Assembly: GCF_046105845.1 (NCBI RefSeq)
Contig: NZ_CP151004.1
Source: Escherichia coli
GTDB lineage: Bacteria > Pseudomonadota > Gammaproteobacteria > Enterobacterales > Enterobacteriaceae
Direction: 5' to 3' (one strand)
DNA length: 64,000 nt
Under the pieces are notes generated by a model. The model made no database searches, had not been told where the DNA came from, and worked only from the letters and a program-made list of their open reading frames with translations. Of this stretch, positions 41,901 to 61,928 are shown one piece after another (within the stretch, counting starts at the first letter, position 1; each line of letters opens with the position of its first letter). Made by a program: the position numbers and the translations under genes.

Positions 41901-42457
41901 ATATTGACGATGAAGTGGTGAGCGTAAAATCGCTGTACGGTGATTACGACACGCCGCAGGATTTCCTCGAAGCCTTTGACTCGCTGGTGCAACGTTCCCC
42001 GAACGCGCAACCGGCATTGCAGGCGGTGATCAATCGCCCGCGCGATCTCACCCGTAAAGGGCTGGTTGAACTCCAGGAGTGGTTTGACCGCCAGCACTTT
42101 GAGGAATCTTCCCTGCGCAAAGCGTGGAAAGAGACGCGCAATGAAGATATCGCTGCCCGGCTGATTGGACATATTCGCCGCGCTGCGGTGGGCGATGCGC
42201 TGAAACCGTTTGAGGAACGTGTCGATCACGCGCTGACGCGCATTAAGGGCGAAAACGACTGGAGCAGCGAGCAATTAAGCTGGCTCGATCGTTTAGCGCA
42301 GGCGCTGAAAGAGAAAGTGGTGCTCGACGACGATGTCTTCAAAACCGGCAACTTCCACCGTCGCGGCGGGAAGGCGATGCTGCAAAGAACCTTTGACGAT
42401 AATCTCGACAACCTGCTTGATAAATTCAGCGATTATATCTGGGACGAGCTGGCCTGA
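38945..42457 (+). CDS. hsdR: Type I restriction enzyme R subunit HsdR (type IA, EcoKI-like)
   Basis: 1170 aa; SF2 motor motifs MATGTGKT and VVDEAHRG. Confidence 0.95.
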   Translation: MMNKSNFEFLKGVNDFTYAIACAAENNYPDDPNTTLIKMRMFGEATAKHLGMLLNIPPCENQHDLLRELGKIAFVDDNILSVFHKLRRIGNQAVHEYHNDLDDAQMCLRLGFRLAVWYYRLVTKDYDFPVPVFVLPERGENLYHQEVLTLKQQLEQQAREKAQTQAEVEAQQQKLVALNGYIAILEGKQQETEAQTQARLAALEAQLAEKNAELAKQTEQERKAYHKEITDQAIKRALNLSEEESRFLIDAQLRKAGWQADSKTLRFSKGARPEPGVNKAIAEWPTGKDETGNQGFADYVLFVGLKPIAVVEAKRKNIDVPGKLNESYRYSKCFDNGFLRETLLEHYSPDEVHEAVPEYETSWQDTSGQQRFKIPFCYSTNGREYRAAMKTKSGIWYRDVRDTRNMSKALPEWHRPEELLEMLGSEPQKQNQWFADNPGMSELGLRYYQEDAVRAVEKAIVKGQQEILLAMATGTGKTRTAIAMMFRLIQSQRFKRILFLVDRRSLGEQALGAFEDTRINGDTFNSIFDIKGLTDKFPEDSTKIHVATVQSLVKRTLQSDEPMPVARYDCIVVDEAHRGYILDKEQTEGELQFRSQLDYVSAYRRILDHFDAVKIALTATPALHTVQIFGEPVYRYTYRTAVIDGFLIDQDPPIQIITRNAQEGVYLAKGEQVERISPQGEVINDTLEDDQDFEVADFNRGLVIPAFNRAVCNELTNYLDPTGSQKTLVFCVTNAHADMVVEELRTAFKKKYPQLEHDAIIKITGDADKDARKVQTMITRFNKERLPNIVVTVDLLTTGVDIPSICNIVFLRKVRSRILYEQMKGRATRLCPDVNKTSFKIFDCVDIYSTLESVDTMRPVVVRPKVELQTLVNEITDSETYKITEADGRSFAEHSHEQLVAKLQRIIGLATFNRDRSETIDKQVRRLDELCQDVAGVSFNGFASRLREKGPHWSAEVFNKLPGFIARLEKLKTDINSLNDAPIFLDIDDEVVSVKSLYGDYDTPQDFLEAFDSLVQRSPNAQPALQAVINRPRDLTRKGLVELQEWFDRQHFEESSLRKAWKETRNEDIAARLIGHIRRAAVGDALKPFEERVDHALTRIKGENDWSSEQLSWLDRLAQALKEKVVLDDDVFKTGNFHRRGGKAMLQRTFDDNLDNLLDKFSDYIWDELA

Positions 42458-44248: not shown

Positions 44249-45615
44249 GTGCGGAGAAATTGCCGGAGGGGTGGGTTGAGTGTGAATTATCCGAACTCGG
44301 TAACATTGTTACAGGGAAAACTCCCAGTACCAAGGAGCCTTCCAATTTTGGAGGCAGCATTCCTTTCATTAAACCAGGCGATCTTGATCTCGGTGGCTAT
44401 ATCATGAATACCGCCGATACTCTGACGGAGAAAGGGTTATCTCTTGTCCCCACTCTTCCTGCCAATTCAGTCGTTGTGACGTGTATTGGAAATTTAGGAA
44501 AAGTTGGAATTACCGCTAAAAAATCAGCATCTAATCAACAAATAAATGCATTGATCCCGTCAGAAAAGCTAAATGTAAAATTTGTTTATTACCAAATTTT
44601 AACATTAAAACCATGGTTAGAGTCTCAATCAGCAGCTACTACAATTGCGATTGTGAACAAGAGCAAATTTTCTCAGGCACCATTTAAATTCCCGTCGCTT
44701 GCCGAACAAAAAATCATCACTGAAAAACTCGATACGCTGCTGGCGCAGGTAGACAGCACCAAAGCACGTCTTGAGCAAATCCCACAAATCCTGAATCGTT
44801 TTCGTCAGGCTATTCTAGCTAATGCTGTGGAAGGAAAATTGACCGACGAATGGCGAGCCGGAAAATGTTATATTACAGAAATCAAAAAAATATCTGATAT
44901 TATTCAGAATGCTCAAGTCGGATTAGTTCGTTCAGCTTCAGATCAAAGCGAAATATGCACTCAAAAAATGAGAACGCCTTATATAAAAATGAATAACATT
45001 CACAATGTTCTCGGAACAAATTTAGAAAAACTCGCTTATGTCAACTGTGATAGCTATGAACTGGAAAAATATAGATTAAAAAATGGAGATTGGCTCTTTA
45101 ATACACGAAATAGTTATGAGTTAGTTGGTAAATCCTGTGTCTGGAATGGATGTAGCAATGCTGTATATAATAATAATATATTAAGAGTTAGACTAAAAGA
45201 AAACTACAATTCTGTTTTTTTAGATTATTGGTTTCACTCGTTCTATGGAGTGAGCATGCTTAATAGTATTAAATCCGCAACAACAAATGTTGCTGCGATA
45301 TATCAGAAAGAACTCTTAAGTAAAAGTGTTCCATTCCCCCCCCTTCCCGAACAAGCCGAGATTGTTCGCCGCGTCGAACAACTCTTCGCCTACGCCGACA
45401 CCATAGAAAAACAGGTCAACAACGCCTTAGCCCGCGTTAACAACCTGACGCAATCCATCCTGGCAAAAGCGTTCCGTGGTGAACTCACCGCCCAGTGGCG
45501 GGCCGAAAACCCGGATTTAATCAGCGGAGAAAACAGCGCCGCCGCGTTGCTGGAAAAAATCAAAGCTGAACGCGCAGCCAGCGGGGGTAAAAAAGCCTCG
45601 CGTAAAAAATCCTGA
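44245..45615 (+). CDS. hsdS: Type I R-M specificity subunit HsdS, apparently non-EcoKI TRDs
   Basis: 456 aa; ATGA overlap with hsdM; conserved N-terminal, central (LAEQKIITEKLDTLLAQVDSTKAR) and C-terminal regions flank two low-GC variable TRDs. Confidence 0.9.
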   Translation: MSAEKLPEGWVECELSELGNIVTGKTPSTKEPSNFGGSIPFIKPGDLDLGGYIMNTADTLTEKGLSLVPTLPANSVVVTCIGNLGKVGITAKKSASNQQINALIPSEKLNVKFVYYQILTLKPWLESQSAATTIAIVNKSKFSQAPFKFPSLAEQKIITEKLDTLLAQVDSTKARLEQIPQILNRFRQAILANAVEGKLTDEWRAGKCYITEIKKISDIIQNAQVGLVRSASDQSEICTQKMRTPYIKMNNIHNVLGTNLEKLAYVNCDSYELEKYRLKNGDWLFNTRNSYELVGKSCVWNGCSNAVYNNNILRVRLKENYNSVFLDYWFHSFYGVSMLNSIKSATTNVAAIYQKELLSKSVPFPPLPEQAEIVRRVEQLFAYADTIEKQVNNALARVNNLTQSILAKAFRGELTAQWRAENPDLISGENSAAALLEKIKAERAASGGKKASRKKS

Positions 45616-45765: not shown

Positions 45766-45842
45766 GTATTTAGCGCGGTGCGGATGTGCGCCAACACACC
45801 CGCACCGCTCATCACAATCACTATTCCAGGAGAATAGCAGTT

Positions 45843-46184
45843 ATGACTGACACGCATTTTATTGCACAACCGTTCGAAGCAGAAGTCTCCCCGGCAAATA
45901 ACCGTCAATTAACCGTGAGTTATGCGAGCCGCTACCCGGATTACAGCCGTATTCCCGCCATCACCCTGAAAGGTCAGTGGCTGGAAGCCGCCGGTTTTGC
46001 CACCGGCACGGCGGTAGATGTCAAAGTGATGGAAGGCTGTATTGTCCTCACCGCCCAACCCCCCGCCGCTGAAGAGAGCGAACTGATGCAGTCGCTGCGC
46101 CAGGTGTGCAAACTGTCGGCGCGTAAACAAAAGCAGGTGCAGGCGTTTATTGGAGTGATTGCCGGTAAACAGAAAGTCGCGTAA
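45843..46184 (+). CDS. symE: SOS-induced toxin-like protein SymE (AbrB/SpoVT fold)
   Basis: 113 aa [52 protein letters not shown]... Confidence 0.9.
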
Positions 46185-46345
46185 CAGCGTTTACTCCCGG
46201 TTAACCACCGGGAGCCTTCCACTGACTCAATAGAAACTTTCCCCCTCAGTAAATATTTACCTGCCTGATTGTGCAGTAAAAATCTATTGTTTCAGTACGT
46301 TGCGAAAGCGATAATAGAGGCTTAGCAATGAGGAAGGCACATCTT

Positions 46346-47725
46346 ATGGAATCAATTCAAGCCTGGATTGAAAAATTTATTGAGCAAGCACAGCAACAAA
46401 GTTCGCAATCCACTAAAGATTATCCAACGTCTTACCGTAACCTGCGAGTAAAAGTGAGTTTCGGTTATGGCAATTTTACATCTATTCCCTGGTTTGCATT
46501 TCTTGGAGAAGGTCAGGAAGTTTCTAACGGTATATATCCCGTTATTCTCTATTATAAAGATTTTGATGAGTTGGTTTTGGCTTATGGTATAAGTGACACG
46601 AATAAACCACATGCACAATGGCACTTTTCTTCTGACATACCTAAAACAATCGCAGAGTATTTCCAGGCAACTTCAGGTGTATATCCTAAAAAATACGGAC
46701 AGTCCTATTACGCCTGTTCCCAAAAAGTCTCACAGGGTCTTGATTATACCCGGCTTGCCTCCATGCTGGACAACATAATCAACGACTATAAATTAATATT
46801 TAATTCTGGCAAGAGTGTTATTCCACCTATGTCAAAAACTGAATCATACTGTCTGGAAGATGCGTTAAATGATTTGTTTATCCCTGAAACCACAATAGAG
46901 ACGATACTCAAACGATTAACCATCAAAAAAAATATTATCCTCCAGGGGCCGCCCGGCGTTGGAAAAACCTTTGTTGCACGCCGTCTGGCTTACTTGCTGA
47001 CAGGAGAAAAGGCTCCGCAACGCGTCAATATGGTTCAGTTCCATCAATCTTATAGCTATGAGGATTTTATACAGGGCTATCGTCCGAATGGTGTCGGCTT
47101 CCGACGTAAAGACGGTATATTTTACAATTTTTGTCAGCAAGCTAAAGAGCAGCCAGAGAAAAAGTATGTTTTTATTATAGATGAAATTAATCGTGCCAAT
47201 CTCAGTAAAGTATTTGGCGAAGTGATGATGTTAATGGAACATGATAAACGAGGTGAAAACTGGTCTGTTCCCTTAACCTACTCCGAAAACGATGAAGAAC
47301 GATTCTATGTCCCGGAGAATGTTTATATTATCGGTTTAATGAATACTGCCGATCGCTCTCTGGCCGTTGTTGATTATGCCCTGCGCAGACGATTTTCTTT
47401 CATAGATATTGAGCCAGGTTTTGATACACCACAGTTCCGGAATTTTTTACTGAATAAAAAAGCAGAACCTTCATTTGTTGAGTCTTTATGCCAAAAAATG
47501 AACGAGTTAAACCAGGAAATCAGCAAAGAGGCCACTATCCTTGGGAAAGGATTCCGCATTGGGCATAGTTACTTCTGCTGTGGGTTGGAAGATGGCACCT
47601 CTCCGGATACGCAATGGCTTAATGAAATTGTGATGACGGATATCGCCCCTTTACTCGAAGAATATTTCTTTGATGACCCCTATAAACAACAGAAATGGAC
47701 CAACAAATTATTAGGGGACTCATAG
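46346..47725 (+). CDS. mcrB: 5-methylcytosine-specific restriction enzyme McrB (GTPase subunit)
   Basis: 459 aa from internal ATG with AGGAAGG RBS; AAA+ Walker A GPPGVGKT. Confidence 0.95.
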   Translation: MESIQAWIEKFIEQAQQQSSQSTKDYPTSYRNLRVKVSFGYGNFTSIPWFAFLGEGQEVSNGIYPVILYYKDFDELVLAYGISDTNKPHAQWHFSSDIPKTIAEYFQATSGVYPKKYGQSYYACSQKVSQGLDYTRLASMLDNIINDYKLIFNSGKSVIPPMSKTESYCLEDALNDLFIPETTIETILKRLTIKKNIILQGPPGVGKTFVARRLAYLLTGEKAPQRVNMVQFHQSYSYEDFIQGYRPNGVGFRRKDGIFYNFCQQAKEQPEKKYVFIIDEINRANLSKVFGEVMMLMEHDKRGENWSVPLTYSENDEERFYVPENVYIIGLMNTADRSLAVVDYALRRRFSFIDIEPGFDTPQFRNFLLNKKAEPSFVESLCQKMNELNQEISKEATILGKGFRIGHSYFCCGLEDGTSPDTQWLNEIVMTDIAPLLEEYFFDDPYKQQKWTNKLLGDS

Positions 47726-48771
47726 TGGAACAGCCCGTGATACCTGTCCGTAATATCTATTACATGCTTACCTATGCATGGGGTTATTTACAGGACATTA
47801 AGCAGGCCGACCTTGAAGCCATACCCGGTAACAATCTTCTTGATATCCTGGGGTATGTATTAAATAAAGGGGTTTTACAGCTTTCACGCCGAGGGCTTGA
47901 GCTTGATTACAATCCTAATACCGAGATCATTCCTGGCATCAAAGGGCGAATAGAGTTTGCTAAAACAATACGCGGCTTCCATCTTAATCATGGGAAAACC
48001 GTCAGTACTTTTGATATGCTTAATGAAGACACGCTGGCTAACCGAATTATAAAAAGCACATTAGCCATATTAATTAAGCATGAAAAGTTAAATTCAACTA
48101 TCAGAGATGAAGCTCGTTCACTTTATAGAAAATTACCGGGCATTAGCACTCTTCATTTAACTCCGCAGCATTTCAGCTATCTGAACGGCGGAAAAAATAC
48201 GCGTTATTATAAATTCGTTATCAGTGTCTGCAAATTCATCGTCAATAATTCTATTCCAGGTCAAAACAAAGGACACTACCGTTTCTATGATTTTGAAAGA
48301 AACGAAAAAGAGATGTCATTACTTTATCAAAATTTTCTTTTTGAATTTTGCCGTCGTGAATTACCATCTGTAAATACAACTCGCCCACATTTAAAATGGG
48401 ATGCATCAAGCATATCGGATCAATCACTTAGCTTGTTACCTCGAATGGAAACTGACATCACCATTAACTCATCAGGGAAAATACTTATCGTTGATGCCAA
48501 ATACTATAAAAGCATTTTTTCACGACGAATGGGTACAGAAAAGTTTCATTCTCAAAATCTATATCAACTGATGAGTTACTTATGGTCGTTAAAGCCTGAA
48601 AATGGCGAAAAAACAGGGGGGTTATTAATATACCCACACGTAGACACCTCAGTGAAACATCGTTATAAAATTAATGGCTTCGATATTGGCTTGTGTACCG
48701 TCAATTTAGGTCAGGAATGGCCGTGTATACATCAAGAATTACTCGACATTTTCGGTGAATATCTCAAATAA
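47725..48771 (+). CDS. mcrC: McrBC endonuclease subunit McrC
   Basis: 348 aa from GTG overlapping mcrB stop by 1 nt (TAGTG); PD-(D/E)xK region ...DITINSSGKILIVDAKYYKS. Confidence 0.9.
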   Translation: MEQPVIPVRNIYYMLTYAWGYLQDIKQADLEAIPGNNLLDILGYVLNKGVLQLSRRGLELDYNPNTEIIPGIKGRIEFAKTIRGFHLNHGKTVSTFDMLNEDTLANRIIKSTLAILIKHEKLNSTIRDEARSLYRKLPGISTLHLTPQHFSYLNGGKNTRYYKFVISVCKFIVNNSIPGQNKGHYRFYDFERNEKEMSLLYQNFLFEFCRRELPSVNTTRPHLKWDASSISDQSLSLLPRMETDITINSSGKILIVDAKYYKSIFSRRMGTEKFHSQNLYQLMSYLWSLKPENGEKTGGLLIYPHVDTSVKHRYKINGFDIGLCTVNLGQEWPCIHQELLDIFGEYLK

Positions 48772-48793
48772 GCGGTAAGTTTTATAGAAAATA

Positions 48794-48820
48794 CCGCTCC
48801 CGACACCACATCGGGAGCGG
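48794..48820. terminator. Hairpin between convergent mcrC and large helicase gene
   Basis: ccgctcccga-caccaca-tcgggagcgg 10-bp perfect stem; A/T-rich on minus-strand downstream side. Confidence 0.5.
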
Positions 48821-48827
48821 CTCATCA

Positions 48828-51800
48828 TCAGGAGGCGATCACCTCCACCAGCACATCCGTTGCCCAACTCTCTTCGCTGTTGGCGACATTCCCTTCCTTG
48901 CAGGCCTGAGCCATTTTGACTAACTGGAAAGAAACGTCATCGCGGAAATCAAAGTAATGCCATTGCGATGCAAAGTTGATGCGCCAGTAGCCCATCCCCT
49001 GATCGAAGCGGATCTTCAATACCTGACCATCATCAAAAGTCACCGTCAGTTTACGATGGTGAGGGATATCGCGCGGCGAGTCGAACACCGTCAGTTCTAC
49101 CGGCCTGCCCAGCGCAGCAGCAAACCACTGATCAGCGAAATCCTGAAAATCCGCTATGCTCATCCAGTCATGGAAAGGCCGGTTACCGGGGCGATCTTTA
49201 TCTTTAAATAGCGTATCCAGCGTCACTTCAGCGCCATCGGTCAGCTTTGTTTTTAGCGGTCTCAAAATTGATCCCAACAACGCCAGCGCAACCGGGTTTT
49301 GCAGATAGCGATCGGTATAGTGAACGCCGGTAATTCGCGTGTTATTCATCAGTGACTGCGCTTCTTCATGGTCGTTAAACAGCACGTCCCAGAAGCGTTG
49401 CCCAAACTGCGACAGTGGTCCATTCAACTGTTTGTGGATCTGAATGTCTTTGACCCGCTCGACAGCGTTGGCGGCTTTAGCCGGCAGAATAAATTCGTTC
49501 AGCTCTACCGTTTTATAGCCGAGACTACGTACCACCAGTTCGTCATTCAGGTGCCACTCCGGCCCCGGAATCGTTGCCTGCTGGCTACGAGAGGCCAGCG
49601 TCATCACGCGATCGGCAAAGGTGACCTGAGCAACGATCGGTAATTTCAAATCCTGTTCAACATGGCATAGCCGCACACCCAGCGCAGTAAATTGCGATAG
49701 TTCGTGCAACAGGTCCGGGTCATCCACTCCCGCAGGAATAACAAGATCGACCTCGACGTTGTCTTTTAGCCGATAGTTCTGAACCGCCGCGCGGAACTGA
49801 CGTGCGTATAAATCCCACTCATTGGGCGCGCCGGTCATCCACAGGGTGAGCTTTTCAGCGCCTTCGTTAATCGCCCGGCGAATCGTATCGCCAATGGCGC
49901 CAGGGCAGTAGCGGGCATCCGGCAGCGAGAATGTCTCTTCATCCGGTAAACCGATGTAATACGTGAAGTCATCGCCAAGCCAGGCCAGCGCCGCTTTGCG
50001 ATCCAGCAAATCGTGATCGTGGCGAGTCTGGGAATCAAGCAGGCATTCACTACATGCAGTCTCACAATGGCGGCAGCCTAACTGTTTCACCATTCCCTGC
50101 AATATAGCTTCAATGTGTACCGGTGCGCTGGAGGCAAAACCTGCACCACCGCTGATCACATCATAAAGCTGTACGGCTAATACCGATTGCCCATCCTCCA
50201 GTCTGACCGGACGTACAGAATAGCCGAGTTCTGCGGCGGAGATACCCAGAACGCCCGCCAGCGCCTGACGCAGAGCAACCGCCAGAGTCATGGCAACAAT
50301 CCGCCCCTCCTCTGTGTTATCTGGCAGATACTCGCCGTTTTGCGGTTTGCGCAGAACCATTTCAAAGACATCGGTGCGCGCCAGTGCGCCCAGGGTGACG
50401 TTCTTCATGAGTGCCGTCGAACCGGGGCAAATCAGACGATGATTCTGGCTATCGCGGTCCGCTTTACCCGGACGCGGTGGATAGTGAGCTTCCATGCTTT
50501 TCGGCGCATCATTTTCATTCAGCATCGACTCAGCACGGCCACAGCTCAGACACAATGCATAACCGTGTCCACCTTCCCCCAAACTTTGCTGGAAAACATG
50601 CCCATCAGCCCCAGAAGCCATATAACCCATTAGCGGGTTAGGCAACGGTACGGGCTCTGCTTTAACAAAGACCCACGCGGGGACAACCGGGACGAATTTC
50701 ATGGTTTCAATATTGTTCGTTACCGGAGCGTGTGCATCGGTGACAAACCCGGCAGGCTGCAGCACCTGACGGCGATTATCCATGATTATTTTTTCGCCGC
50801 AGGCGCTATTGGAGCAAAAGAGCATCCCGGAACTGCTCATCCCCTCTTCATAGCCAATGGTCCCGCATTTGTGACAGCGCCAGGCGCAATCCAGACGCTG
50901 GGCTTCATTGGTATCAGCATTAATGTTGTGCCAGTGCAGTGAGACACCGGCAGAGCGGAAGACACGGCCATCAAGAATGATCTCTGCTCCCGGTGCATAT
51001 TCACGAATGGCAACACCGAGGTTACGGGAAGGTAATCCTTTATAACGGGAGACGTTATCTTCACGGTCCTTTTTATCACGACTTTTTTGCGATTTTTCGC
51101 GGATATAATCTTCCATTGTGAAGTTATCAAACGTCACTACATCTGTCGGGAAACCGTATCCCGGCAAGAAGGTTCTGGCAGCTAGATCGCGCAGCAGATA
51201 CTCGCCACAGTGCCGTTTCTTCTCCAGCTCTATGCGCTTACGATAAGGCGTTTGCGGCTGCGACTCACGCTCCTGTGTCACGAGATCGCGATAAACGGAG
51301 AGCCACCGCTGCTGCAGGAAGGTGATCGCGTTGATTGTTTTATCCCGCAGATATTCGGCTCTTGCACCATGCAACGCCGTACCTTTCACCAGCCGTTCCA
51401 GCGCCGTGTCGATATCAAGAACAGGGCGTTCCAGCCAGACTTTGAAGCGTTCGCATTTTGACTGCCCGTCATCTTCACCGAAAAACCAGAGGCTATCGAG
51501 GCTGGTTTTCTCTTTATCGGTTTCGCCAATAACGTTACATAAAAAGTCGGACAGTAATAATGCATTGACGTGACGTTGCACCAGTCGGGCGGAGTTCATC
51601 GCGACCATGGGTGCCGGGATCATGGTTTCAAATGGCCAGAGCGGGTTGGCAAAAACCTGCTGGTCGTGTGGGTTACCTTTACATAGGGTGTAAGAGATCG
51701 CACGTGATTCTTTACTACGCCCGGCTCGCCCGGCGCGCTGTAAATAGTTGGCCGGATGTGGCGGTACGTTGTTCATTACCACCGCAGTAATGCCCCCGAT

Positions 51801-54800
51801 ATCAACCCCCATTTCCATGGTGGTGGAACAGTTGAGAACATTTAGTTGCCCATTCTTGAACATCTTTTCATAGCTTTGCAGACGTTCTGACGACTGCTGG
51901 GCAGAGTGCTCGGCAGTGCGATAGTAGAAACCGCCTTCCACGACACGATCGTTGATGTCTGTCCAGACGTTTTCCGACCGCAATTGTGCGATCAGCGGAT
52001 CATTGCTGACCCAGTCGCGTGCTTTTGCCAGACCCTCTGCGTAGTCTTCCTGTGAACGATCCAGCTTCCAGATTTCCGGCATGGTGACTTTCTGCGCGAC
52101 AAAAGTGTCATATTGCGCCTGGGTAAGATGCTCGAACGAAATATGGGTAGGCAGATAAGGGGTTAAGCCTTTAAAAGCCGTATCCAGGATTTTATTGGTT
52201 ACCGGGCAAATCCAGGCATCCGTGATTAATGAAAAAGTCATATGCTCTTTCGGTAAATAAAAACGGTTGCCATCGGGTTTCAGTACTGCAAGCGGTCCGG
52301 TAAGTTGGGCCCATGCTTCTTTCAGCCATGTATTGATAATATCAATAGTCGCCGTATTGACGGTTTTGAATCCAGCCCCCAGCATCAGTAACTTCGCTAA
52401 ACGATGGGATACGTTGCCATTACGAATTTGAGGCCAGCGTCTGTTCTGATTATCTTCAGGATCTTTTGATTCCGGGTTACGGACGAATTTTGATGAAAAA
52501 CGGCTACCGATCCAGTTTTTCAGCTCATCATCCAGCTGTGTGAAGTTGCTCTCACGAACGTAATGATCCAGCGTAACTTTGAGAAAATCGCGCCAGTCAT
52601 CCAGCGTTAATCCTTTTTCCTGCCAGTGCAGAGGGATCTTATGTATTTTCTCCAGCCCCAGGTAACCAACCTGAACCAGCCCTTGTGTTTCCAGGCTGTT
52701 AGTCCGTTTAGGGCGACGCATGAATTCCCGGAATAACAACATTTCCGAAAGCTTTAGAGGCCCGCCGTTTTCATTAAACACTTCAGGCTTAAGATAATGG
52801 TTATATTGCAGAACCGGGCCACGGATATCGGCTCTCTCTTTAAGCTCGTTAACCATTTCTGTCCAGGTTCGGGATACCAGAGTAATTGCAGCTTTTCCAC
52901 CGATTGCAGACTGGTAAGCCTGTTCAAGCTGCTCGGCCTGCGCTTCTGATAATTTCGCTTGATCCGGCAATCCCCAGCTTCGATATTCTTCTGCCTGCTC
53001 ACGGGCTTGCTTTACCCTGGTCGCTAATTTTTCCAGATCGGCATTAGCGTTCGGCGCCGTGGGCGTTTGCGTTCGTTGATGCCAGCTCAGAATTTCGACT
53101 ACGCTTCCGCGTAAGCGACTACGTTCTGCTTCTTGCTGCATACGCACCGCCATCCGGGCTGTCCCTTGTCGACTATCCGTAAAGGTAATGAGTCGACGTC
53201 CTCGCCCTGGCAACGAATCTGGTCCGACGCCCTCTTTGCCTTCATCACTGGCAAAGTCCTGACAATACTCAAGAACGGTAGGCACGATGTTAGTAACGTA
53301 AAATGGCCCACCTAATAATGCACGCCGAAAGGGTTGTTTTCCGCTCATGCCTCGGTAGCCACAGCCGCTGGCGCTACAAACCTGTTCAATATCATTAATA
53401 ATCAGCGGAATGCTGTCATTATTAATAACGCCAATACGGCGCGTCTGACGGTCGAGGCGTTGTAGGGTATAGCCTGTCTCGCTGGTCTCTCCTGCGGCAA
53501 TAATCAACGGAGGCTGGAAACTGTTCTCTTTTTCGACTTTTTCCTCTGTAGTGTCATGTTCAACAGGTACTTCATCCTGCAAGGAGAACTCATCGCCACC
53601 TTTATTTTCCCATTGGACAAGTTTGCCCTTTTTGTCCTGCGCCAGAAGATGAGGCTCATTACAATCATTACAGAACGCCACTTCGTATACAGGGCTTCCA
53701 CAGTCACAATTTTGTCGCTGGTTCACATACACATAGCCAAAGGGCCAGCCTTTTTCGAGCGGTGTACCGTGCTTTAATCTGCAATCTTTATCAACACAAG
53801 CCCATATTCCCTGGGTATTACGCTGGAAGATATGCGCCCTGACTTTAAGAAATGCGGGATCCTTTGCATTAGGTTGAGTCCCTGAACAGACATCGATCCA
53901 ACGCAGTACTTCCTGCTGGCTGTAATGCTGTTTTGTCAGCACGTTTAACCGCTCTGTTATCTCATCCAGCTTCATCGGATTGGGCTGTTTGACCAACATC
54001 TCACGTATGTAACGCGCTTCGGGGGAATGCGTAAGCGCATAAAAGCGATCAGGACTTATACCTTTAATTTTATTATCATTTTTATCTCTTAGATCCAGAT
54101 CGGGTATTTGCTCTATTTCGTCTAACGGAAGAGAAACGTTTTTGGATGGTTCCAGTTCAGGAATCACCCGACTTCCGTCCAGAACATCGATGCGCTCCTT
54201 CGGGATACCGGATAATTCAGAGAGAAATTTTTTCAGCTGCTTTTCGACGTCGCTGCCGGCAATGGTCGCAGAGGTCGCTACAAAGCGCACATCATCTGGC
54301 GTCACGCCAAACGCTGTCATCACACGACGCAGCTGGAGCGCCAGTTCAGCGGCCTGCGACCCGACATAGGTATGCGCTTCATCCAGTACAATCCAGCGTA
54401 GTGATTTTTGTGCTTTGGATTGCTGGATAATCGGGGCGTCGACCTGGCGAACCATCATATATTCCAGCATCGTGCCGTTGGTCACCAGAATCGGGGCAGG
54501 TTCTTCACGCATTTTTTCGCGCGAGAGCACCTCATTCGGCCTTTTTGCCTGTTCGCTTTTTACCGAAGCGTGTAGGTTTTCGGTGTTACCGTTGTAAAGG
54601 CAGTAGCGGATCCCGGTACCAAAACCACGCGTCCAGGCATCCAGACGCTCGCGCTGTGAATTAATCAGGGCGTTCAATGGATAGAGAAAAAGGGCTCGGA
54701 CACCGACCAACGGATTGTTGCCATTTTCATGCAGTTCCCGGTAAAGATCTTCCAGCACCGGTACCATAAAACATTCCGTTTTACCTGAACCCGTACCACT

Positions 54801-55172
54801 GGTTACCACCACTGAATGTTTCTTTTCCAGCAAAGCTTTCCAACTGGCTAACTGGTGTGTAAAAGGCTTCCAGTCAGCACCAAATCGGTACCGGCCATTA
54901 CTCTGATCATCCAGTGAATCAACCACTGCTTTGCTCAACAATGCGTTGCCTTCCGTCAGACTGCGCATCGTGTGGTTTGACTCCTTCCAGCCAAACATTT
55001 GCTGGAATACCGGAGAAGCAAGGAATGAGCCCGGTTTCCCACAATCAGCCCCCATTTGTTGCGCGAGATGTTCACGCAGCTGCGGGTTGGTTACGCCCAT
55101 GATACTGAGCGTTGCTTCAGTTGAACGAGACAACGATTGTTCAATAAGTGACGAAAAATAGCGTGTAGTCAT
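48828..55172 (-). CDS. Large SF2 helicase with C-terminal Cys clusters (DUF1998-like); candidate DruE of a Druantia type III-like system
   Basis: 2114 aa; Walker [16 protein letters not shown] (aa ~125-135), DEAH box IVLDEAHTY (~262-269), motif III ATSAT, motif [10 protein letters not shown]; Cys pairs CHKCG...CSNSACG and CLSCG. Confidence 0.85.
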
Positions 55173-55184
55173 CCTTATTCCTTT

Positions 55185-58100
55185 TTATTTTTTAGCAACA
55201 TAACGCAACAGGCTGCACTGAAAGATGGTCTTAAACCAGCGGGAATCGAAGTCCCTGACTTGCCTCAGGAAAAATACGGCACCGGGTTTACGGTCAAATA
55301 CAGCTTCAAAAGAAGTATTTCCGCTTGCCACAGCTGCAGCGAAGACGGGTAACCAGGCCACGGAATAGCGGTGATTTGCGTCAGGATTAATACCAATCAC
55401 TGGCTTTTTTTGTGACATCATCCATTTATACAGACGCTTGCAGCCATATTCAGGCCAGCGAGCTTCACTGTGCTCACGTAAAAGCTCCTGATACCACCCG
55501 TGGACACAAGATTCAGGAATAGACGGAGGGAGATATCCGTTACTTAACCATTTCTCAATTTCATCGGCATATGTCGGGAACACGAGCCCCAGCCGTTGAA
55601 ACATATTAGTAACCAGTAATTTCTGGGTTTCCTCCGGTGCACCTTTTTGGCTCAGGAACAATTTGAAACGCTCAGATGCAGCTTTGATCTCAAAGATGGG
55701 GAAAAACTCCCATAGAATAGGGAACTCATTCTCAATACGACTCAGGTACTCTGCTGACATTTCAAATTTGAAGAGCGACATTGCCAATGCCTGCGGATGC
55801 TGCACCAGTGCACGCCATACTTCAAAGGTTGCCAGTGGTAAATACCCGAATTGATCGTACAGGCTACGCATAAATTGCCAGCCGGAATGGGCAGGATCGT
55901 TAGCCATCTGTCCGAGAACCAGTGTGATGGTATTAACTTCTGCCTGTGGATTAAAAAGCTGGGTCGCTTTCTGCAATGAGCGGATGTTGCTTTCTTCTAC
56001 CGGTAACGAAGATTCGCCACGAATGAAGCAGGGACGAAAAGCCATCTCTTCACCCGGTTTAGGGACAACCAACCACGGTCCATTTTTGTTAACGATTGAG
56101 CTCAACTCATATTCACCGACAGGCACTCCCTCGCTCATTCTAGATGCTAAGGGAATGGATTTCCTCTCGGGTTCACTTAACAGCATGATAACGGGGGAAG
56201 GAATCTGCCCAGCACGATGGTTCACTGACTGGCTGAGTAATAGTTCTTTTTCATAATCATAGCGCAGGCTGTATTTATAGCGACGAATTTGCCAGGCCAT
56301 GACCACACCTGCCCCCGTAATACGCATCTCAACAACCTGATCAATACCTGCCTCAAGTGAAATCAGGTTCTCAATATGTTCGCGAAGACTATAGAGATTC
56401 AATTCAACAGGACGATCGCTCAACGCCGTATAACACCATTCATGCCATGCCTGTAATCCACTAACGGAGCGCAAATACAACTGCAATGTATATTTTGTCG
56501 GCTCACCATTTCTGGAGAACAGAAACGCTCTGGAACCCAGCAGATCATGCAGCGTAATGTTTTTATCCAGAGGACGTCCGTTTACATCAAGAGCGAGACA
56601 GCCTTTAGCGGGAAAAGGTAACTCAATGTCGATGGGGTCAGCCGCCAAATTAGGCAGAACTTGTAATGTAATAAATGCCGGAGGTACCCCTTCCGCTTTA
56701 AGTTGTATCTCTGTTCGCCCCTCAGTACGCTTACGTGTAGCCTCCAATGTTTTATCTTTAAGTTTTGCTACACAAGGATGCTGTGTGGTGATTAAGATAG
56801 TGCCTTCATTTGCGTGCATTCCACCTTTTATCTCAATACTGAAATCAGCAGGCAAGATACCGATTTTGCGACGCAAGAGCGTTTCATTGTTACTATTACG
56901 GATAGAAAGATATTGAGCCCCCAGCATCTCTTGTATATGACATTGCTCAATTGAAATTCCGCTCAGGTAACGCGTTACATCAATGCTTTGAATATCCGGT
57001 AGTGTAGAAATGACTTTTGGTACACCAATAAATGTTTCATCTGGATGACAAACCCAGCTTGCACGCTTTCCATTTAGAGCAAACCTTCCGATGCTGATTT
57101 GTTCTCTTCCGGTGCGAATCCGATAAGTTTCATTTGCTGTAACTGTAACGTCCTGACATCCCTTCACAGGTAGTGCTTTTAGTCCTAATACGTTTACTGC
57201 GCTCGATTGGCCATCAAAACCAGCAACATTGCTATTATCCCGAGGGAGTACAATCAGAACATCGCTGCTTCGCACACTGCAAGAAGCCTGTCCCTGTAAC
57301 AGCCATTGATCTGCATCAACGATGAAGGTTAACGGCACCTCACCAATGGCAATTTCACTGTCATCAAGTTTAATGCTCCCAACAATCATCCCTCCAGCAC
57401 GAGCCACTAATGACAAACCTGCCGATGGATTTTGCCTGACAAATCTCACTTCGCTTTTACGTAATCGAACTGTTGCCTGTCTGTTTTCCAGGGAAGCATA
57501 GGCTGGCCCAAGGCCAGAGACTTCCTCACCATCTTCACAAATGGCAAGTTCAAAGCGCGTAGTTGACGGCTCGCTTGTTACAGGAAAGGAAACTTCGTCC
57601 GGAAGAGATACTATCACCCTAAGCTCATCTGGATGCTTTTCTGACCAATAGAATTGGCAACGCGTACTCTTATTTTTTTGTAGTCGAGGCTTAGCCTCTA
57701 CAGAGGCTGCGCATAGCAGTCCATTCAAAAAATGCGTTCCTGTTTCATCATCTAACGGTATTGGAAACTCGCTTCGCCAGGTAGGGTGAACCTTCTCAAG
57801 CTGTTGTACTGGTTCTTTGTGATTTATTAGGTTGTGAGTAAGTACTAAGGAATTGAGGTTATCAGCCATATGACTGATAAGTTCTACAGAGGTATCTTCG
57901 CTAAAAACAGTTGGCAGCGCTGATTTTTCTATGACAGCTCTTGCCAGCGAAAGGGCAGAAAAACCTGACTGCTTTGCTTGCTCATATTGTCCAAGGATCC
58001 TGGAGAAAACAGCCAGAAAGCGACTGTCTGATTCTTTGAGTAGCCGGAAAGGTAAACCACCTTCACTGAATAATGTTCCGAGAAAATTGCGTCGTTCAGA

Positions 58101-58475
58101 TTCATAAAATCGAATTGGGCGCAGCCAGTAATCTTCCATCCCTTTCGGTACGATAGTACCAAGCTCTGTGGCGGTGAATGAAATCCCTATTTTTTTATAT
58201 ATAGGGTCCCACGTCCATCCGCATTGCCGTTCATAATCCCTGCGGTACCACTCAGAGCAAAAAAGAACAAAACAGGCAGCAAAGTCCCTATTACATATAT
58301 TAGATTGTGATTGATCGACCGCACGGAGTAGCTGCGTTAATTGGGTATATTCATCATTGGTTGCATGATATTCATAAAGAGGACGGCCATCCGGTTGTCT
58401 CAACCCTCTAAGATTCACAAAGTTACTTAGCCAGGAAGTACATTTTACCCATGAAATGTATTCTGATTGACCCAA
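55185..58475 (-). CDS. Large protein with no recognisable motif; candidate DruH-like partner of the helicase
   Basis: ORF 55185..58523 (GTG); preferred TTG start at 58475 preceded by AAGGAG with 6-nt spacer; 12-bp gap to downstream helicase gene. Confidence 0.8.
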   Translation of the reverse strand: MGQSEYISWVKCTSWLSNFVNLRGLRQPDGRPLYEYHATNDEYTQLTQLLRAVDQSQSNICNRDFAACFVLFCSEWYRRDYERQCGWTWDPIYKKIGISFTATELGTIVPKGMEDYWLRPIRFYESERRNFLGTLFSEGGLPFRLLKESDSRFLAVFSRILGQYEQAKQSGFSALSLARAVIEKSALPTVFSEDTSVELISHMADNLNSLVLTHNLINHKEPVQQLEKVHPTWRSEFPIPLDDETGTHFLNGLLCAASVEAKPRLQKNKSTRCQFYWSEKHPDELRVIVSLPDEVSFPVTSEPSTTRFELAICEDGEEVSGLGPAYASLENRQATVRLRKSEVRFVRQNPSAGLSLVARAGGMIVGSIKLDDSEIAIGEVPLTFIVDADQWLLQGQASCSVRSSDVLIVLPRDNSNVAGFDGQSSAVNVLGLKALPVKGCQDVTVTANETYRIRTGREQISIGRFALNGKRASWVCHPDETFIGVPKVISTLPDIQSIDVTRYLSGISIEQCHIQEMLGAQYLSIRNSNNETLLRRKIGILPADFSIEIKGGMHANEGTILITTQHPCVAKLKDKTLEATRKRTEGRTEIQLKAEGVPPAFITLQVLPNLAADPIDIELPFPAKGCLALDVNGRPLDKNITLHDLLGSRAFLFSRNGEPTKYTLQLYLRSVSGLQAWHEWCYTALSDRPVELNLYSLREHIENLISLEAGIDQVVEMRITGAGVVMAWQIRRYKYSLRYDYEKELLLSQSVNHRAGQIPSPVIMLLSEPERKSIPLASRMSEGVPVGEYELSSIVNKNGPWLVVPKPGEEMAFRPCFIRGESSLPVEESNIRSLQKATQLFNPQAEVNTITLVLGQMANDPAHSGWQFMRSLYDQFGYLPLATFEVWRALVQHPQALAMSLFKFEMSAEYLSRIENEFPILWEFFPIFEIKAASERFKLFLSQKGAPEETQKLLVTNMFQRLGLVFPTYADEIEKWLSNGYLPPSIPESCVHGWYQELLREHSEARWPEYGCKRLYKWMMSQKKPVIGINPDANHRYSVAWLPVFAAAVASGNTSFEAVFDRKPGAVFFLRQVRDFDSRWFKTIFQCSLLRYVAKK

Positions 58476-58973
58476 AGCAAGCTCCTTAGAGATAAAAGAT
58501 ACAAAAACAAAACCCCACAACACTTCTAATTTGAAAGAAAACTTTTCAAAATATCGTATAATTAATCAGGCGGCAACAACTAATTTTTCAGGTCGGTACT
58601 ATAAATTAATTTTAGATAAAAATGATATCAACCATCTATTAATCACAACTCATTTATCACCTGGTTTTATAATTTCAAATGAAAATAAATCTCAAACAAT
58701 CAAAAAGTATGCAGTAGCTAACATTTAACTTTCCAGGATATAAAACAATTAGAGAAACTGCACAATAGCGAATAATGAAAGTTGTAAAGTCAGTCAAAAA
58801 ACACAAGCAATCAGTGTGCGTTTTTTGACCGTTATCGACATGAGTTTAAAGAGTTTAGTGAAGAAGATATTCCTGTACACTCCATACCTATTGATGAATT
58901 GTCTCGGGAAAATTTTTATAACTTAATTTAAAAACATAAAAACGTTTTATTATATATAAATCTATACCCCCCC

Positions 58974-59138
58974 TCACTCCACATCCTCCCTGCGTAACCC
59001 AATATCCCTCAACCGCTCATCACTCATCTGCTGTAACACCCGCCGGGCCTGCATTTGCCGCCGCCAACGCCTCACTGCCTGCCAGAGTTGCACAAGTCCA
59101 ATAAACGGTGCTTTAGCTTTGTTTTCGTGAAATTCCAT
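58974..59138 (-). CDS. yjiS: Small protein YjiS (DUF1127)
   Basis: 54 aa hand-translated: MEFHENKAKAPFIGLVQLWQAVRRWRRQMQARRVLQQMSDERLRDIGLRREDVE; below ORF-track size cut-off. Confidence 0.85.
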   Translation of the reverse strand: MEFHENKAKAPFIGLVQLWQAVRRWRRQMQARRVLQQMSDERLRDIGLRREDVE

Positions 59139-60970: not shown

Positions 60971-61928
60971 TTAGTACTCGATCCAAGGATCGCGCTTGCT
61001 TTCAGGCAAGGGCTGCTCTAATGCCTGCATTTGCTCTGCCGAGAGTCCGGTATATCGTTGTATCCATTCAGGATCTGCCCCATTCTGCAACAACAATCGG
61101 AGGAGGCTCCGTTCCCCTTCTACTTTCCCTTCTTTCCTCCCCCTCTCCCTTCCCAACAGCCATCCATCATTATGAATTCGCTCTGCAATCGTCATTATTC
61201 GCTCCCTTTGTTGTGGCATTCGACTGGTTAGTTCGCTGATAAACTCTTTAAAACGCGCTTCATCGCCAGTCAGTAAAATGTAATTTAACAGCGCAGTTAT
61301 CTGGCTGTCATTAGTACACTCTGTAACCAGTAATACTACCAGTTGGTCGATAAGTCCCATCAGATCGCGCTGGCGAATATGCTTTTGGATCAACTCCAAC
61401 AGGGCGACTCTGCGATGCTGCACAATCTCGTCGTCTGGCACGACAGTGACATCCACCAGCGGGAACGCGGCGTTATAAACTTTCCGTGCGGTAGCCGGGT
61501 CGGCAAATTCGTCCAGCCAGCACAGGGACCAGGGATAAGGACTACGGCTACCGTGATAAAACAGCATCGGGATGACCAGCGGTAGCGGCCGGCGTTTATC
61601 ATGCTCGATATGGCGCTGCATCACCGCCATGGAATAGCGCATAAGGCGAAACGCCATATGAATATCCTCGCGGCTCTGATGTTCAATCACTACGTAAATA
61701 TAACCATCACCTTCACGGGTCTTTACCGACCACAGAAATATCGGAATGTAGCGCCCGCAATTTTTCATCGACAAAGCTGGCGGATTCCAGTTTTAAGCTG
61801 TCGAGATCGCACAGTTCACGTAAATCTTTGGGTAAGTGGATCTCCATAAAATCCCGCGCGGTGTCAGGGTGCGTGAGAAAGGATTTAAATAATGCGTCAT
61901 GCGGCGTGCTGGTTGTGAAGTTTGTCAT
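60971..61928 (-). pseudogene. rpnD: Rpn (YhgA-like) recombination-promoting nuclease gene, frameshifted
   Basis: N-terminal 71-aa ORF (61713..61928, [18 protein letters not shown]...) and C-terminal 267-aa ORF (60971..61774, ...[13 protein letters not shown]...) overlap in different frames. Confidence 0.75.

Follow-up and report, generated by a model that had tools for sequence, protein, structure and literature searches.

A druH–druE locus of the Druantia type III-A family in the immigration control region of Escherichia coli

Known Druantia Type III Systems

Cryo-EM structures and biochemistry of Druantia type III have been reported in five 2026 papers (among them Himpich et al. 10.64898/2026.05.13.724758; Wu et al. 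PMC13192584; Loeff et al. 10.64898/2026.05.13.724313; Hu et al. 10.64898/2026.05.12.722862). In these papers, DruE is a dimeric 3′–5′ helicase that carries PLD nuclease domains, partnered by DruH, an ssDNA-binding or exonuclease protein. Subtype III-A is characterised by two C-terminal PLD-like domains in DruE, which are absent from III-B (Himpich et al.). Both genes are needed for phage protection, which is lost in Walker A, DEAH or MZB-cysteine mutants, as established in the OI-172 and P. aeruginosa systems only. The published accounts disagree on several points. DruH has been variously described as a 3′–5′ exonuclease, a nickase/sensor, an ATP-competed ssDNA binder, a scaffold or, possibly, a sensor for late phage proteins. 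The preferred substrate of DruE carries a 3′ overhang or a 5′ overhang, depending on the paper, and one study found the PLD domains dispensable against Bas26, another essential against T2. The earlier note on the DNA analysed here considered the mechanism of Druantia unresolved, a statement that these structures and assays have put out of date.

All of the E. coli work found in a literature search concerns the OI-172/SPIDER lineage of type III-A (EDL933 Z5897–Z5898, ATCC 8739, NCTC12923; PDB 9tu7 for DruE and 9tud for DruH), and the search found no published experiments on the chromosomal YjiT/YjiV clade. The E. coli Druantia III of Wang et al. was considered as a member of the latter clade and rejected, since it is 32.65% identical to the Kosakonia system according to their Table S2, a value that places it in the OI-172 lineage. 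The ‘Druad1’ paper (10.1101/2024.04.14.589459) deals with Druantia type I only and was set aside as not relevant.

The locus described here lies in a 64,000-nucleotide stretch of E. coli DNA (the window) and shares its clade with the Druantia III system of Kosakonia (Enterobacter) radicincitans DSM 16656, with 61% identity in DruH. The Kosakonia system is presumably the predicted archetype of Doron et al. 2018. Its DruH and DruE are 1098 and 2103 aa long, compared with 1096 and 2114 aa in the window, and both loci adjoin symE–hsdS–hsdM. However, the slot between druE and symE is occupied by a Mrr_cat gene in Kosakonia and by mcrBC in the window, and the flanking chromosomal genes differ. Kosakonia radicincitans DSM 16656 also provides the reference Druantia III system in Wang et al.

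The system of P. aeruginosa BL12 (ERY33374.1/ERY33375.1; Loeff, Chanez and Jinek 2026) is likewise of type III-A, with helicase residue E266 where the window protein has E265. The PLD pocket of its DruE (PaDruE) follows the pattern D...H...DRY...R...HxR...S, and a matching pattern is invariant in the family of the window protein. Another P. aeruginosa DruE, P0156 (59% identical to that of the window), was tried as a stand-in for PaDruE and rejected, as it has E264 rather than E266 and DRY at 1951 rather than 1917. This mismatch indicates that the characterised PaDruE comes from another clade; because the P0156 numbering was unusable, the PLD pocket was defined by family-wide invariance.

Finally, B. 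subtilis MrfA/YprA (PDB 6znp) and DISARM DrmA + DrmB have in common with DruE an SF2 DEAH core and an MZB/DUF1998 zinc module, but neither has a DruH partner, a large insert separating RecA1 from RecA2, or fused PLD-like domains. MrfA, 751 aa long, is a repair helicase.

Organisation of the Locus

The locus consists of two co-directional minus-strand genes (Table 1), as the earlier note had described: the ORF coordinates agree, druH lies upstream, and 12 nt separate its stop codon from the ATG of druE. At its longest, the upstream ORF (55185–58523, minus strand) encodes 1112 aa from a GTG codon. The alternative start put forward in the earlier note, TTG 58475 with its AAGGAG, is preferable to this GTG. 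It is in frame, has the Shine–Dalgarno sequence 6 nt upstream, and coincides with the RefSeq start of druH in a 99.4%-identical genome and in K-12 b4342. Furthermore, druH homologues have lengths of 1094–1100 aa, and the profile alignments begin at residue 19 or 31 of the 1112-aa ORF. On these comparisons, the 5′ extension (58476–58523) is probably untranslated.

A simple scan of the 500-bp region upstream of druH detected no sigma-70 consensus promoter. Between druE and mcrC, which converge, a terminator-like hairpin begins 7 nt past the druE stop. The anatomy of the druHE operon is intact, comprising the Shine–Dalgarno sequence and TTG, the 12-nt spacer and the terminator.

Table 1. Features of the druHE locus, in window coordinates.
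Feature	Coordinates	Strand	Basis
druH (yjiT), Druantia III accessory protein, 1096 aa from TTG 58475	55185..58475	-	DruH3 and YjiT_fam profiles, RefSeq/K-12 start
druE, YprA/MrfA-like SF2 helicase with C-terminal PLD-like domains, 2114 aa	48828..55172	-	DruE3 profile, PDB 9tu7
5′ extension of longest ORF (GTG 58523)	58476..58523	-	Profile alignments, homologue lengths, RefSeq start
Shine–Dalgarno AAGGAG, 6 nt upstream of druH TTG	58482..58487	-	Sequence reading
druH–druE spacer AAAGGAATAAGG, 12 nt, contains druE ribosome-binding site	55173..55184	-	Sequence reading
AT-rich yjiS–druH intergenic region, ~36–40% GC, presumed promoter/regulatory	58488..58973	-	Composition profile, sequence
Intrinsic-terminator-like hairpin, 13-bp stem, 8 G–C pairs	48793..48821	-	Sequence
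DruH N-terminal helical domain, aa 1–270	57666..58475	-	phmmer to 9tud
DruE RecA1/DEAD, aa 106–310, motifs I (GSGKT 128), II (DEAH 264), III (SAT 301)	54243..54857	-	Pfam DEAD E = 6.7e-23
DruE RecA2/Helicase_C, aa 1085–1153, motif VI (QRAGRAGR 1145)	51714..51920	-	Pfam Helicase_C E = 9.8e-12
DruE MZB (PF09369, formerly DUF1998) zinc-binding, aa 1631–1711, Cys 1700/1703/1707/1710	50040..50282	-	Pfam E = 4.2e-9
DruE PLD-like nuclease region, aa 1712–2114, defines III-A	48831..50039	-	Family-wide invariance
K-12 deletion 1, 3017 bp: DruH aa ~504–1096 and DruE aa 1–~407	53950..56966		blastn of K-12 MG1655 vs window
K-12 deletion 2, 2181 bp: DruE aa ~1127–1852 (motif VI, OB/Zn, MZB, first PLD-like domain)	49616..51796		blastn of K-12 MG1655 vs window

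Assignment to Druantia Type III-A

The identification of the pair as Druantia type III (DruH + DruE), first made from the architecture, is borne out by full-length profile matches. The PADLOC profile DruE3 (PDLC00037) scores 2696.7 bits, aligning protein residues 1–2110 with profile positions 1–2053 of 2055, while the other DruE profiles score lower and match partially (DruE1 540, DruE2 385 and DruE4 355 bits). The upstream protein matches DruH3 (PDLC00049) with 1829 bits, residues 19–1112 of the long ORF aligning with positions 3–1099 of 1100, and NCBIfam YjiT_fam with 1261 bits (cut-off 150). No Dru models for druA–D, druF, druG or druM were detected among the neighbours by PADLOC and NCBIfam scans, the flanking genes being mcrC and yjiS.

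Pfam and PADLOC, which the earlier note had named as the check on both proteins, assign DEAD, Helicase_C, MZB and DruE3 to DruE and DruH3 to DruH. The full SF2 helicase motif set claimed for the 2114-aa protein is present, with motifs I, II, III and VI located in the two Pfam helicase domains, and the C-terminal cysteine clusters thought to resemble DUF1998 fall in the MZB domain. Cysteine pairs occur at 459/464, 489/491, 501/504, 1429/1433, 1453/1458, 1541/1544, 1700/1703 and 1707/1710. The SF2 core followed by a four-cysteine MZB/DUF1998 zinc module places DruE in the YprA/MrfA-like family, and newer Pfam annotation adds YjiV_N (PF27116). Beyond MZB, the protein continues for 403 aa that align to the PLD region of OI-172 DruE, the two C-terminal PLD-like domains that distinguish III-A. 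In this region, W1786–D1787, D1954–R1955–Y1956, H2038-x-R2040 and D2057/G2059/Y2062–W2063 are invariant in 19 DruE3 sequences, OI-172 included, a pattern in agreement with the D...DRY...HxR pocket at which PaDruE was mutated.

Taken as a whole, the locus is very probably an intact and functional Druantia type III-A anti-phage system. Its druH–druE operon represents the chromosomal YjiT/YjiV clade and sits in the immigration control region of E. coli. What the analysis establishes directly is that the genes are intact and belong to the family, that the tested catalytic residues are conserved and that selection is purifying.

Comparison with the OI-172/SPIDER Lineage

Like the OI-172/SPIDER system, the window locus is a two-gene druH–druE arrangement of the DruE3 and DruH3 families. 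The DruE proteins have the same domain order (RecA1, inserted Zn/duplex-binding/dimerisation domains, RecA2, OB/Zn, MZB and two PLD-like domains), and 9tu7 aligns to window DruE over residues 5–2089 with 1026 bits. Conservation extends to the residues of the helicase, MZB and PLD pocket, to those contacting ssDNA, and to the functional surface of the DruH N-terminus. However, identity is 33% in DruE and about 20–22% in DruH, the DNA match is limited to ~130 nt at 78%, and the best DruH sub-model is PDLC00049 for the window and PDLC00041 for OI-172. The surroundings also differ: the window pair is chromosomal, between mcrC and yjiS with hsd, symE and mcrBC as neighbours, whereas OI-172 is flanked by Zorya II and ARMADA II. 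With its low identity and no Zorya II/ARMADA II neighbours, the window pair falls outside Druantia III cluster 11 (OI-172/SPIDER).

Of the experimentally tested residues that could be mapped, most are conserved in the window, the catalytic ones among them. The positions of OI-172 DruE whose mutation abolishes defence are conserved in the window: G128, G130, K131, R176, D264, E265, R1149, R1152, R1383 and C1700/1703/1707/1710, the cysteines aligning to OI-172 C1681/1683/1687/1690. Several residues of OI-172 DruE involved in assembly, interfaces or DNA-duplex contacts are not conserved (R628, K900, R914, H1415, K1546, H1572, H1574 and R2075). Two published labels were left unused: window DruE has a non-acidic residue where ‘E525A in RecA1’ aligns, and the position of ‘R1258 in the PLD pocket’ falls outside the C-terminal PLD region.

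In DruH, the N-terminal domain is the sole part similar to the solved structure by plain sequence search (phmmer to 9tud_A, 80 bits over residues 14–266), and hhalign extends the relationship to OI-172 DruH over 869 columns with 99.65% probability. Among the 18 N-terminal surface residues mutated in OI-172 by Wu et al., 12 are identical in window DruH (F69, E75, R78, R79, W89, Y116, W117, L132, T134, L135, G139 and G140); among the loss-of-function positions of that surface, the count is 12 of 15. R1036 and R1079, whose OI-172 equivalents lost ~90% of defence when mutated, are also conserved, together with K1082, a contact residue not itself mutated in the OI-172 work. The PaDruH residues R22, K28, E64 and E220 are absent at those positions in the 7 Pseudomonas-clade and related DruH homologues that were compared, so the catalytic site of PaDruH could not be mapped onto window DruH. 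A Pfam-A scan of DruH gave no match even at E ≤ 10; this reflects the library release and not the absence of a family, as newer Pfam contains YjiT_N (PF27201) and YjiT_2nd (PF27205).

Genomic Neighbourhood and the K-12 Remnant

The locus sits between mcrBC and yjiS in the mrr–hsdRMS–symE–mcrBC island, which agrees with the immigration-control context proposed for it. One side carries mrr, hsdR, hsdM, hsdS, symE/symR, mcrB and mcrC, and the other yjiS and yjiR; the neighbouring genes match R-M, McrBC and SymE models in PADLOC and NCBIfam.

The earlier note placed yjiT/yjiV remnants at this position in K-12, and blastn resolves two clean deletions there (Table 1). K-12 yjiT (b4342) and yjiV (b4486, a pseudogene) occupy the same chromosomal locus, with the same yjiT start codon, and the retained segments are 95.6–97.6% identical to the window at the nucleotide level. 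K-12 has lost the C-terminal 593 aa of DruH and, in DruE, RecA1 (motifs I–III), motif VI, MZB and the first PLD-like domain, all of which the window retains. As a consequence of the two deletions, K-12 is a natural null for druHE.

Distribution, Decay and Selection

The locus or its remnants are found in 674 of 5426 complete E. coli genomes (12%); hundreds of K-12 laboratory derivatives inflate this census. A full-length, uninterrupted copy is present in about a third of the 674 (~200), RefSeq annotates the locus, and YjiT/YjiV families exist in Pfam and NCBIfam; the claim that an intact copy is notable was thus overstated.

This pattern raises the question of whether the genes, though intact, form a cryptic system, silent (for example, through H-NS acting via the AT-rich upstream region) or otherwise non-contributing, and en route to decay of the K-12/B type. 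Deleted or IS-interrupted versions make up about two thirds of the matching E. coli genomes: besides K-12, B/BL21 has lost everything but the 3′ 3354 bp of druE, and IS insertions break the locus in several natural isolates. Moreover, druE of S. Typhi is split into ORFs of 845 and 1281 aa, and the upstream region of 36–40% GC has no promoter-like site. On the other hand, the inflation of the census bears on these proportions, the invariant family residues are all present, and the related OI-172 operon is active in native-promoter clones. Comparison with three intact alleles gives dN/dS values of 0.055–0.117 for druE and 0.065–0.111 for druH, with dS up to 0.12, which shows long-term purifying selection on both genes. 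A cryptic state is, on balance, improbable, and a functional defence system remains the preferred reading.

Proposed Function

All biochemical steps and the defence phenotype are carried over from relatives at 20–33% identity and are worded here as predictions. By homology, DruE would be a dimeric ATP-dependent 3′-to-5′ DNA helicase of the YprA/MrfA family, loading where exposed ssDNA meets duplex, for example at forks, 3′ tails or recombination intermediates formed as phage DNA replicates. DruH would bind or trim ssDNA at these junctions, thereby licensing DruE, which would unwind the phage DNA and degrade it via the C-terminal PLD-like pocket. The phage would be cleared without killing of the cell and without methylation-based self-marking.

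A main role other than anti-phage defence, as an MrfA/YprA-like mitomycin-repair or housekeeping helicase module or as a ‘motility-regulating DEAH-box RNA helicase’, is suggested by the resemblance of the DruE core to B. subtilis MrfA/YprA (6znp, 64 bits), by the name given to the OI-172 homologue in some RefSeq records and by the cytotoxicity of Druantia III-A under mitomycin C, a reaction to host DNA damage (Himpich et al.), but it is hardly credible given the DruHE defence phenotypes of four independent studies, a druE deletion with no effect on motility or fliC (Himpich et al.), the pure defence-island context, the patchy distribution in E. coli and top profile matches that are defence helicases.

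As to how the proposed defence system might work with its neighbours, it is conceivable, though rather unlikely, that chromosomal Druantia III of the YjiT/YjiV clade is functionally coupled to the accompanying restriction systems, DNA ends made by type I R-M and McrBC and processed by RecBCD supplying ssDNA-tailed substrates to DruH and DruE. In 9 of the 12 genera sampled, druHE has a type I R-M operon no more than 10 kb away, a count that has no control distribution, and the arrangements and HsdR families differ; in one genus that departs from this proximity, recC–recB–recD is directly upstream of druHE. On the same speculative reading, the clade, with a DruH only ~20% identical to the one tested, could also respond to another trigger and differ in the phages it acts on. 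The adjacency of hsd and druHE was considered as a new observation and rejected as such, since type I and IV R-M have been reported as enriched around several Druantia III clusters (Wu et al.).

Biological Significance

Druantia type III is already catalogued, and a PADLOC or DefenseFinder run would detect this locus, which makes it a correct but ordinary identification and not a discovery. E. coli has two deeply diverged Druantia III lineages, and the window provides a clean, intact member of the one for which no mechanistic work was found. If coupling to restriction holds, it would parallel the way in which the OI-172 clade synergises with Zorya II and ARMADA II. The K-12 null means that the allele could be restored in its native context, beside EcoKI-type R-M and McrBC, to ask whether the systems of the immigration control region cooperate. 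Finally, the comparison at 20–33% identity separates core residues (helicase, MZB, PLD pocket and DruH N-terminal surface) from lineage-specific ones (DruE assembly interfaces and the Ig-like middle of DruH), a division that bears on the disagreement among the published mechanisms.

Identification of the gene pair

The druH-druE pair encodes a Druantia type III system, as the earlier note had proposed from its architecture. DruE matches the PADLOC DruE3 model (PDLC00037) end to end (2696.7 bits; residues 1-2110 against 1-2053 of 2055), the models of the other types being matched only in part (DruE1, 540 bits; DruE2, 385; DruE4, 355). DruH matches a DruH3 sub-model (PDLC00049) end to end (1829.3 bits; long-ORF residues 19-1112 against 3-1099 of 1100), and scores 1261 bits against NCBIfam YjiT_fam ('STY4851/ECs_5259 family'; cut-off 150). 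No other Dru genes were found among the neighbours.

The SF2 helicase motif set read from the sequence in DruE was located at GSGKT (starting at residue 128), DEAH (264), SAT (301) and QRAGRAGR (1145), and Pfam places DEAD (106-310), ResIII and Helicase_C (1085-1153) on the protein. DruE holds nine CxnC pairs, and the C-terminal cysteine clusters likened to DUF1998 are recognized as MZB (PF09369, the former DUF1998) at 1631-1711, with C1700/C1703/C1707/C1710. The Pfam-A release used gave zero matches for DruH; a newer release, consulted through precomputed annotations, names the domains YjiT_N, YjiT_2nd and YjiV_N, so the family has already been tied by curators to the K-12 gene names.

Beyond the MZB domain, around 400 residues of DruE align to the PLD-like region of the characterized protein, with W1786-D1787, D1954-R1955-Y1956, H2038-x-R2040 and D2057/G2059/Y2062-W2063 invariant in 19 sequences. 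Since DruE of subtype III-B is devoid of PLD domains (Himpich et al. 10.64898/2026.05.13.724758), the system belongs to subtype III-A. Such a system is already picked up by standard tools and by RefSeq.

Gene structure and genomic context

The ORF list and the sequence confirm two minus-strand genes, with a 12-nt gap (AAAGGAATAAGG) between the druH stop and the druE ATG. Both are full length and free of frameshifts when compared with profiles and RefSeq orthologues. The proposal that druH starts at TTG 58475 and not at the GTG of the longest ORF is well backed: this codon is in frame, is preceded 6 nt before by AAGGAG (58487-58482), and is the RefSeq start of b4342 in K-12 as well as of the orthologue in the closest genome. 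Moreover, homologue lengths (1094-1100 aa) and profile alignments beginning at long-ORF residue 19 or 31 agree with it. A simple scan of the region 5' of druH found no consensus sigma-70 site.

Features of the druHE locus and its surroundings (window coordinates)
Feature	Position	Strand	Remarks
mrr	37843-38757	-	
hsdR	38945-42457		
hsdM	42659-44248		
hsdS	44245-45615	+	
symR antisense RNA	45772-45848	-	Rfam RF01809, 93.5 bits
symE	45786-46184	+	NCBIfam SymE, 226 bits
mcrB + mcrC	46328-48771	+	
Terminator-like hairpin	48821-48793		13-bp stem; 7 nt past druE end
druE	48828-55172	-	2114 aa, ATG start; six-frame ORF list
druH, longest ORF	55185-58523	-	1112 aa, GTG start; six-frame ORF list
Intergenic region 5' of druH	58488-58973		486 bp; 36-40% GC
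yjiS	58974-59138	-	DUF1127, 54 aa; just upstream of druH, same strand

The gene order across the window places the locus inside the mrr-hsd-mcr immigration-control island, as described before, with druE-druH convergent with mcrBC, and yjiS and yjiR lying beyond druH. SymR overlaps the 5' end of symE, forming an intact type I toxin-antitoxin pair flanked by hsdS and mcrB. Both mcrB and mcrC are intact here (McrB, 1100 bits, full profile), and the closest complete genome (O169:H41, 99.4% identity over druHE; L001, 13126-13898) has its mcrB annotated with a frameshift. The hsdS gene is mostly unalignable to its K-12 counterpart by blastn, apart from short conserved blocks, and scores 469 bits, under the curated EcoKI-type cut-off of 662; from this divergence, the type I enzyme of the window probably has a different specificity. 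GC content falls to 38-44% over ~44.2-48.8 kb. An Rpn-family (RpnA-like) ORF of 267 aa (60971-61774, minus strand) aligns to the models only from position ~60, and its top equivalog models score under their curated cut-offs; as the orthologue in the closest genome has 306 aa, the ORF may be truncated at the N-terminus or use an alternative start.

Two diverged lineages of Druantia III

The window system is deeply diverged from the characterized E. coli Druantia III-A, the OI-172/SPIDER lineage, which lies between Zorya II and ARMADA II. That lineage accounts for a second set of ~500 genomes (O157:H7, O145:H28 and others), in which a sensitive blastn with a RecA2-MZB query finds only ~130 nt at 78% match. 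DruE proteins of the two lineages share 33% identity (731/2184 columns), and DruH proteins 20-22%. By phmmer, the window DruH resembles the solved OI-172 structure (9tud) in residues 14-266 only (80 bits), and profile comparison with OI-172 DruH indicates homology over 869 columns (99.65% probability). Both lineages share the DruE3 model and differ in the DruH3 sub-model, PDLC00049 in the window and PDLC00041 in OI-172.

The window's clade includes Kosakonia radicincitans (DruH 61% identical), the source of the reference Druantia III of Wang et al., S. Typhi STY4851 (63%), other Enterobacterales (60-77%), and Pseudomonas and other Gammaproteobacteria (DruH 41-48%, DruE 50-60%). All of the E. 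coli Druantia III experiments found in the literature searched are on the OI-172 lineage: the ATCC 8739 and EDL933 systems (Himpich et al. 10.64898/2026.05.13.724758), the NCTC12923 system (1119 and 2104 aa), 'cluster 11' (Wu et al. PMC13192584) and the EPEC42 system of Wang et al., whose identity to the Kosakonia one is 32.65%. No published test of the window's clade was found in the literature searched.

Mechanism and residue conservation

The earlier statement that the mechanism is unresolved is out of date, as five studies of the family report on it. The DruE dimer is reported to bind exposed ssDNA and to unwind in the 3'-to-5' direction; in that study defence requires the helicase and MZB domains, with the PLD domains dispensable against Bas26, and is non-abortive and independent of host methylation (Himpich et al. 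10.64898/2026.05.13.724758). DruE has also been described as a helicase-nuclease that uses 3' tails for loading and long ssDNA for assembly, and DruH as a protein of Ig-like and baseplate-J-like domains, with a nicking activity that depends on dimerization and a probable role as sensor; the same study defined 15 clades and reported Druantia III to be sensitive to RecD loss (Wu et al. PMC13192584). In P. aeruginosa, DruH is reported to be a 3'-5' exonuclease making 5' overhangs; in this account forked DNA leads to a 1:1 DruE-DruH complex that releases an autoinhibited dimer of DruE, and defence is lost when the PLD pocket is mutated (Loeff et al. 10.64898/2026.05.13.724313). A DruH pocket is reported to bind ssDNA, with ATP competing (Hu et al. 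10.64898/2026.05.12.722862), and the fifth study concerns M. smegmatis. The published accounts agree that the targets are phage ssDNA-duplex junction intermediates and that phage is cleared directly, but differ on DruH activity, nuclease requirement and overhang polarity. Going by this consensus, the window DruHE would act on such junction intermediates, and phage would be cleared directly.

Most of the residues whose loss abolishes defence in the OI-172 lineage are conserved in the window pair. In DruE these are G128, G130, K131, R176, D264, E265, R1149, R1152, R1383 and the four MZB cysteines, together with the ssDNA contacts N167, R218, N232, Y238, R242, R668 and R673. The protomer-assembly interface residues R628, H1415, K1546, H1572, H1574 and R2075 are not conserved. 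On the DruH N-terminal surface, 12 of the 18 residues mutated by Wu et al. (PMC13192584) are conserved. The ssDNA/ATP-site residues R1036, R1079 and K1082 of DruH are retained too, in a low-identity region where mapping is less certain. Nei-Gojobori dN/dS against three intact alleles (dS up to 0.12) is low in both genes (druE, 0.055-0.117; druH, 0.065-0.111), which indicates purifying selection.

Frequency and decay among genomes

A 9.8-kb query is matched at ≥95% identity by 674 of 5426 complete E. coli genomes, invariably on the chromosome, with at least 80% of it covered in one place in 231. In an even 60-row sample along the match ranking, the locus was full length in a single piece in 18 and with an IS interruption in 1; 29 carried the K-12-type double deletion, nearly all being laboratory derivatives, 4 were of the B/BL21 type (3' 3354 bp of druE), and 8 were otherwise partial or IS-disrupted. 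Sample and coverage count together yield intact copies in roughly 200 genomes (~4%). The 90%-identity protein clusters contain 1866 DruH and 3969 DruE members. The system is widespread, and the view that an intact copy is notable is overstated; intactness is the normal state in non-K-12 E. coli.

The statement in the earlier note that K-12 has only yjiT/yjiV remnants at this position proved correct. When MG1655 4570000-4592000 is compared with the window by blastn, three colinear blocks appear, separated by two deletions. The first (53950-56966, 3017 bp) removes DruH ~504-1096 and DruE 1-~407 (RecA1, motifs I-III), and the second (49616-51796, 2181 bp) DruE ~1127-1852, comprising motif VI, the OB/Zn and MZB domains and the first PLD-like domain. 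The leftovers appear in the annotation as yjiT (505 aa) and as a pseudogene, yjiV. Compared with the window, they still show a low dN/dS (0.075-0.23), which is consistent with recent deletions, although some fragments hold very few substitutions.

The lesion of E. coli B/BL21(DE3) differs from the K-12 double deletion, with the 3'-terminal 3354 bp of druE alone retained and labelled 'helicase-related' or 'MrfA Zn-binding domain-containing protein'. The experimentally studied OI-172 lineage also decays in nature: in O157:H7 strain 17B6-2 (L003, 17417-20776), druH is interrupted by an internal stop (codon 533) and carries a pseudogene annotation. In S. Typhi, whose STY4851 gives the family its name, druE is broken into ORFs of 845 aa and 1281 aa in one assembly and is uncalled in another (L005, 13313-19637; L004), which points to a pseudogene. 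Directly upstream of druH in this organism is a ScoMcrA-like HNH gene.

Gene neighbourhoods in the sampled genera

In Klebsiella, Kosakonia, Serratia, Cronobacter and Pantoea, druHE of the window's clade is convergent with symE-hsdS-hsdM(-hsdR), the Cronobacter junction being without symE. The slot between the two blocks is empty or holds Mrr_cat or, in E. coli, mcrBC. In Pseudomonas schmalbachii, Methylotuvimicrobium and Larsenimonas, druHE sits just downstream of a type I R-M operon with the same orientation, and no such operon was found within 10 kb of druHE in S. Typhi, Aeromonas and Salinisphaera; overall, type I R-M is near druHE in 9 of the 12 genera sampled. This adjacency may reflect functional coupling. 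Several Druantia III clusters are already described as having type I and IV R-M enriched in their surroundings (Wu et al. PMC13192584), so the present result is a confirmation and no discovery.

In Salinisphaera sp. T31B1 (L018, 1-9342), recC-recB-recD lies immediately 5' of druH-druE on the same strand, which is notable given the reported RecD/RecBCD dependence of Druantia III. The druHE-symE-hsdSM block stands beside P4-like satellite genes (Psu, Ogr/Delta, AlpA, D5-type primase) in a Klebsiella metagenome contig (L006, 2467-8290) and beside an AlpA/CbtA-CbeA/RadC island in a second Klebsiella genome (L007); the block may travel as integrative-element cargo.

The remaining value of the locus lies in a deeply diverged lineage, one for which no published test turned up in the literature searched, and in the convenient natural null that K-12 provides.
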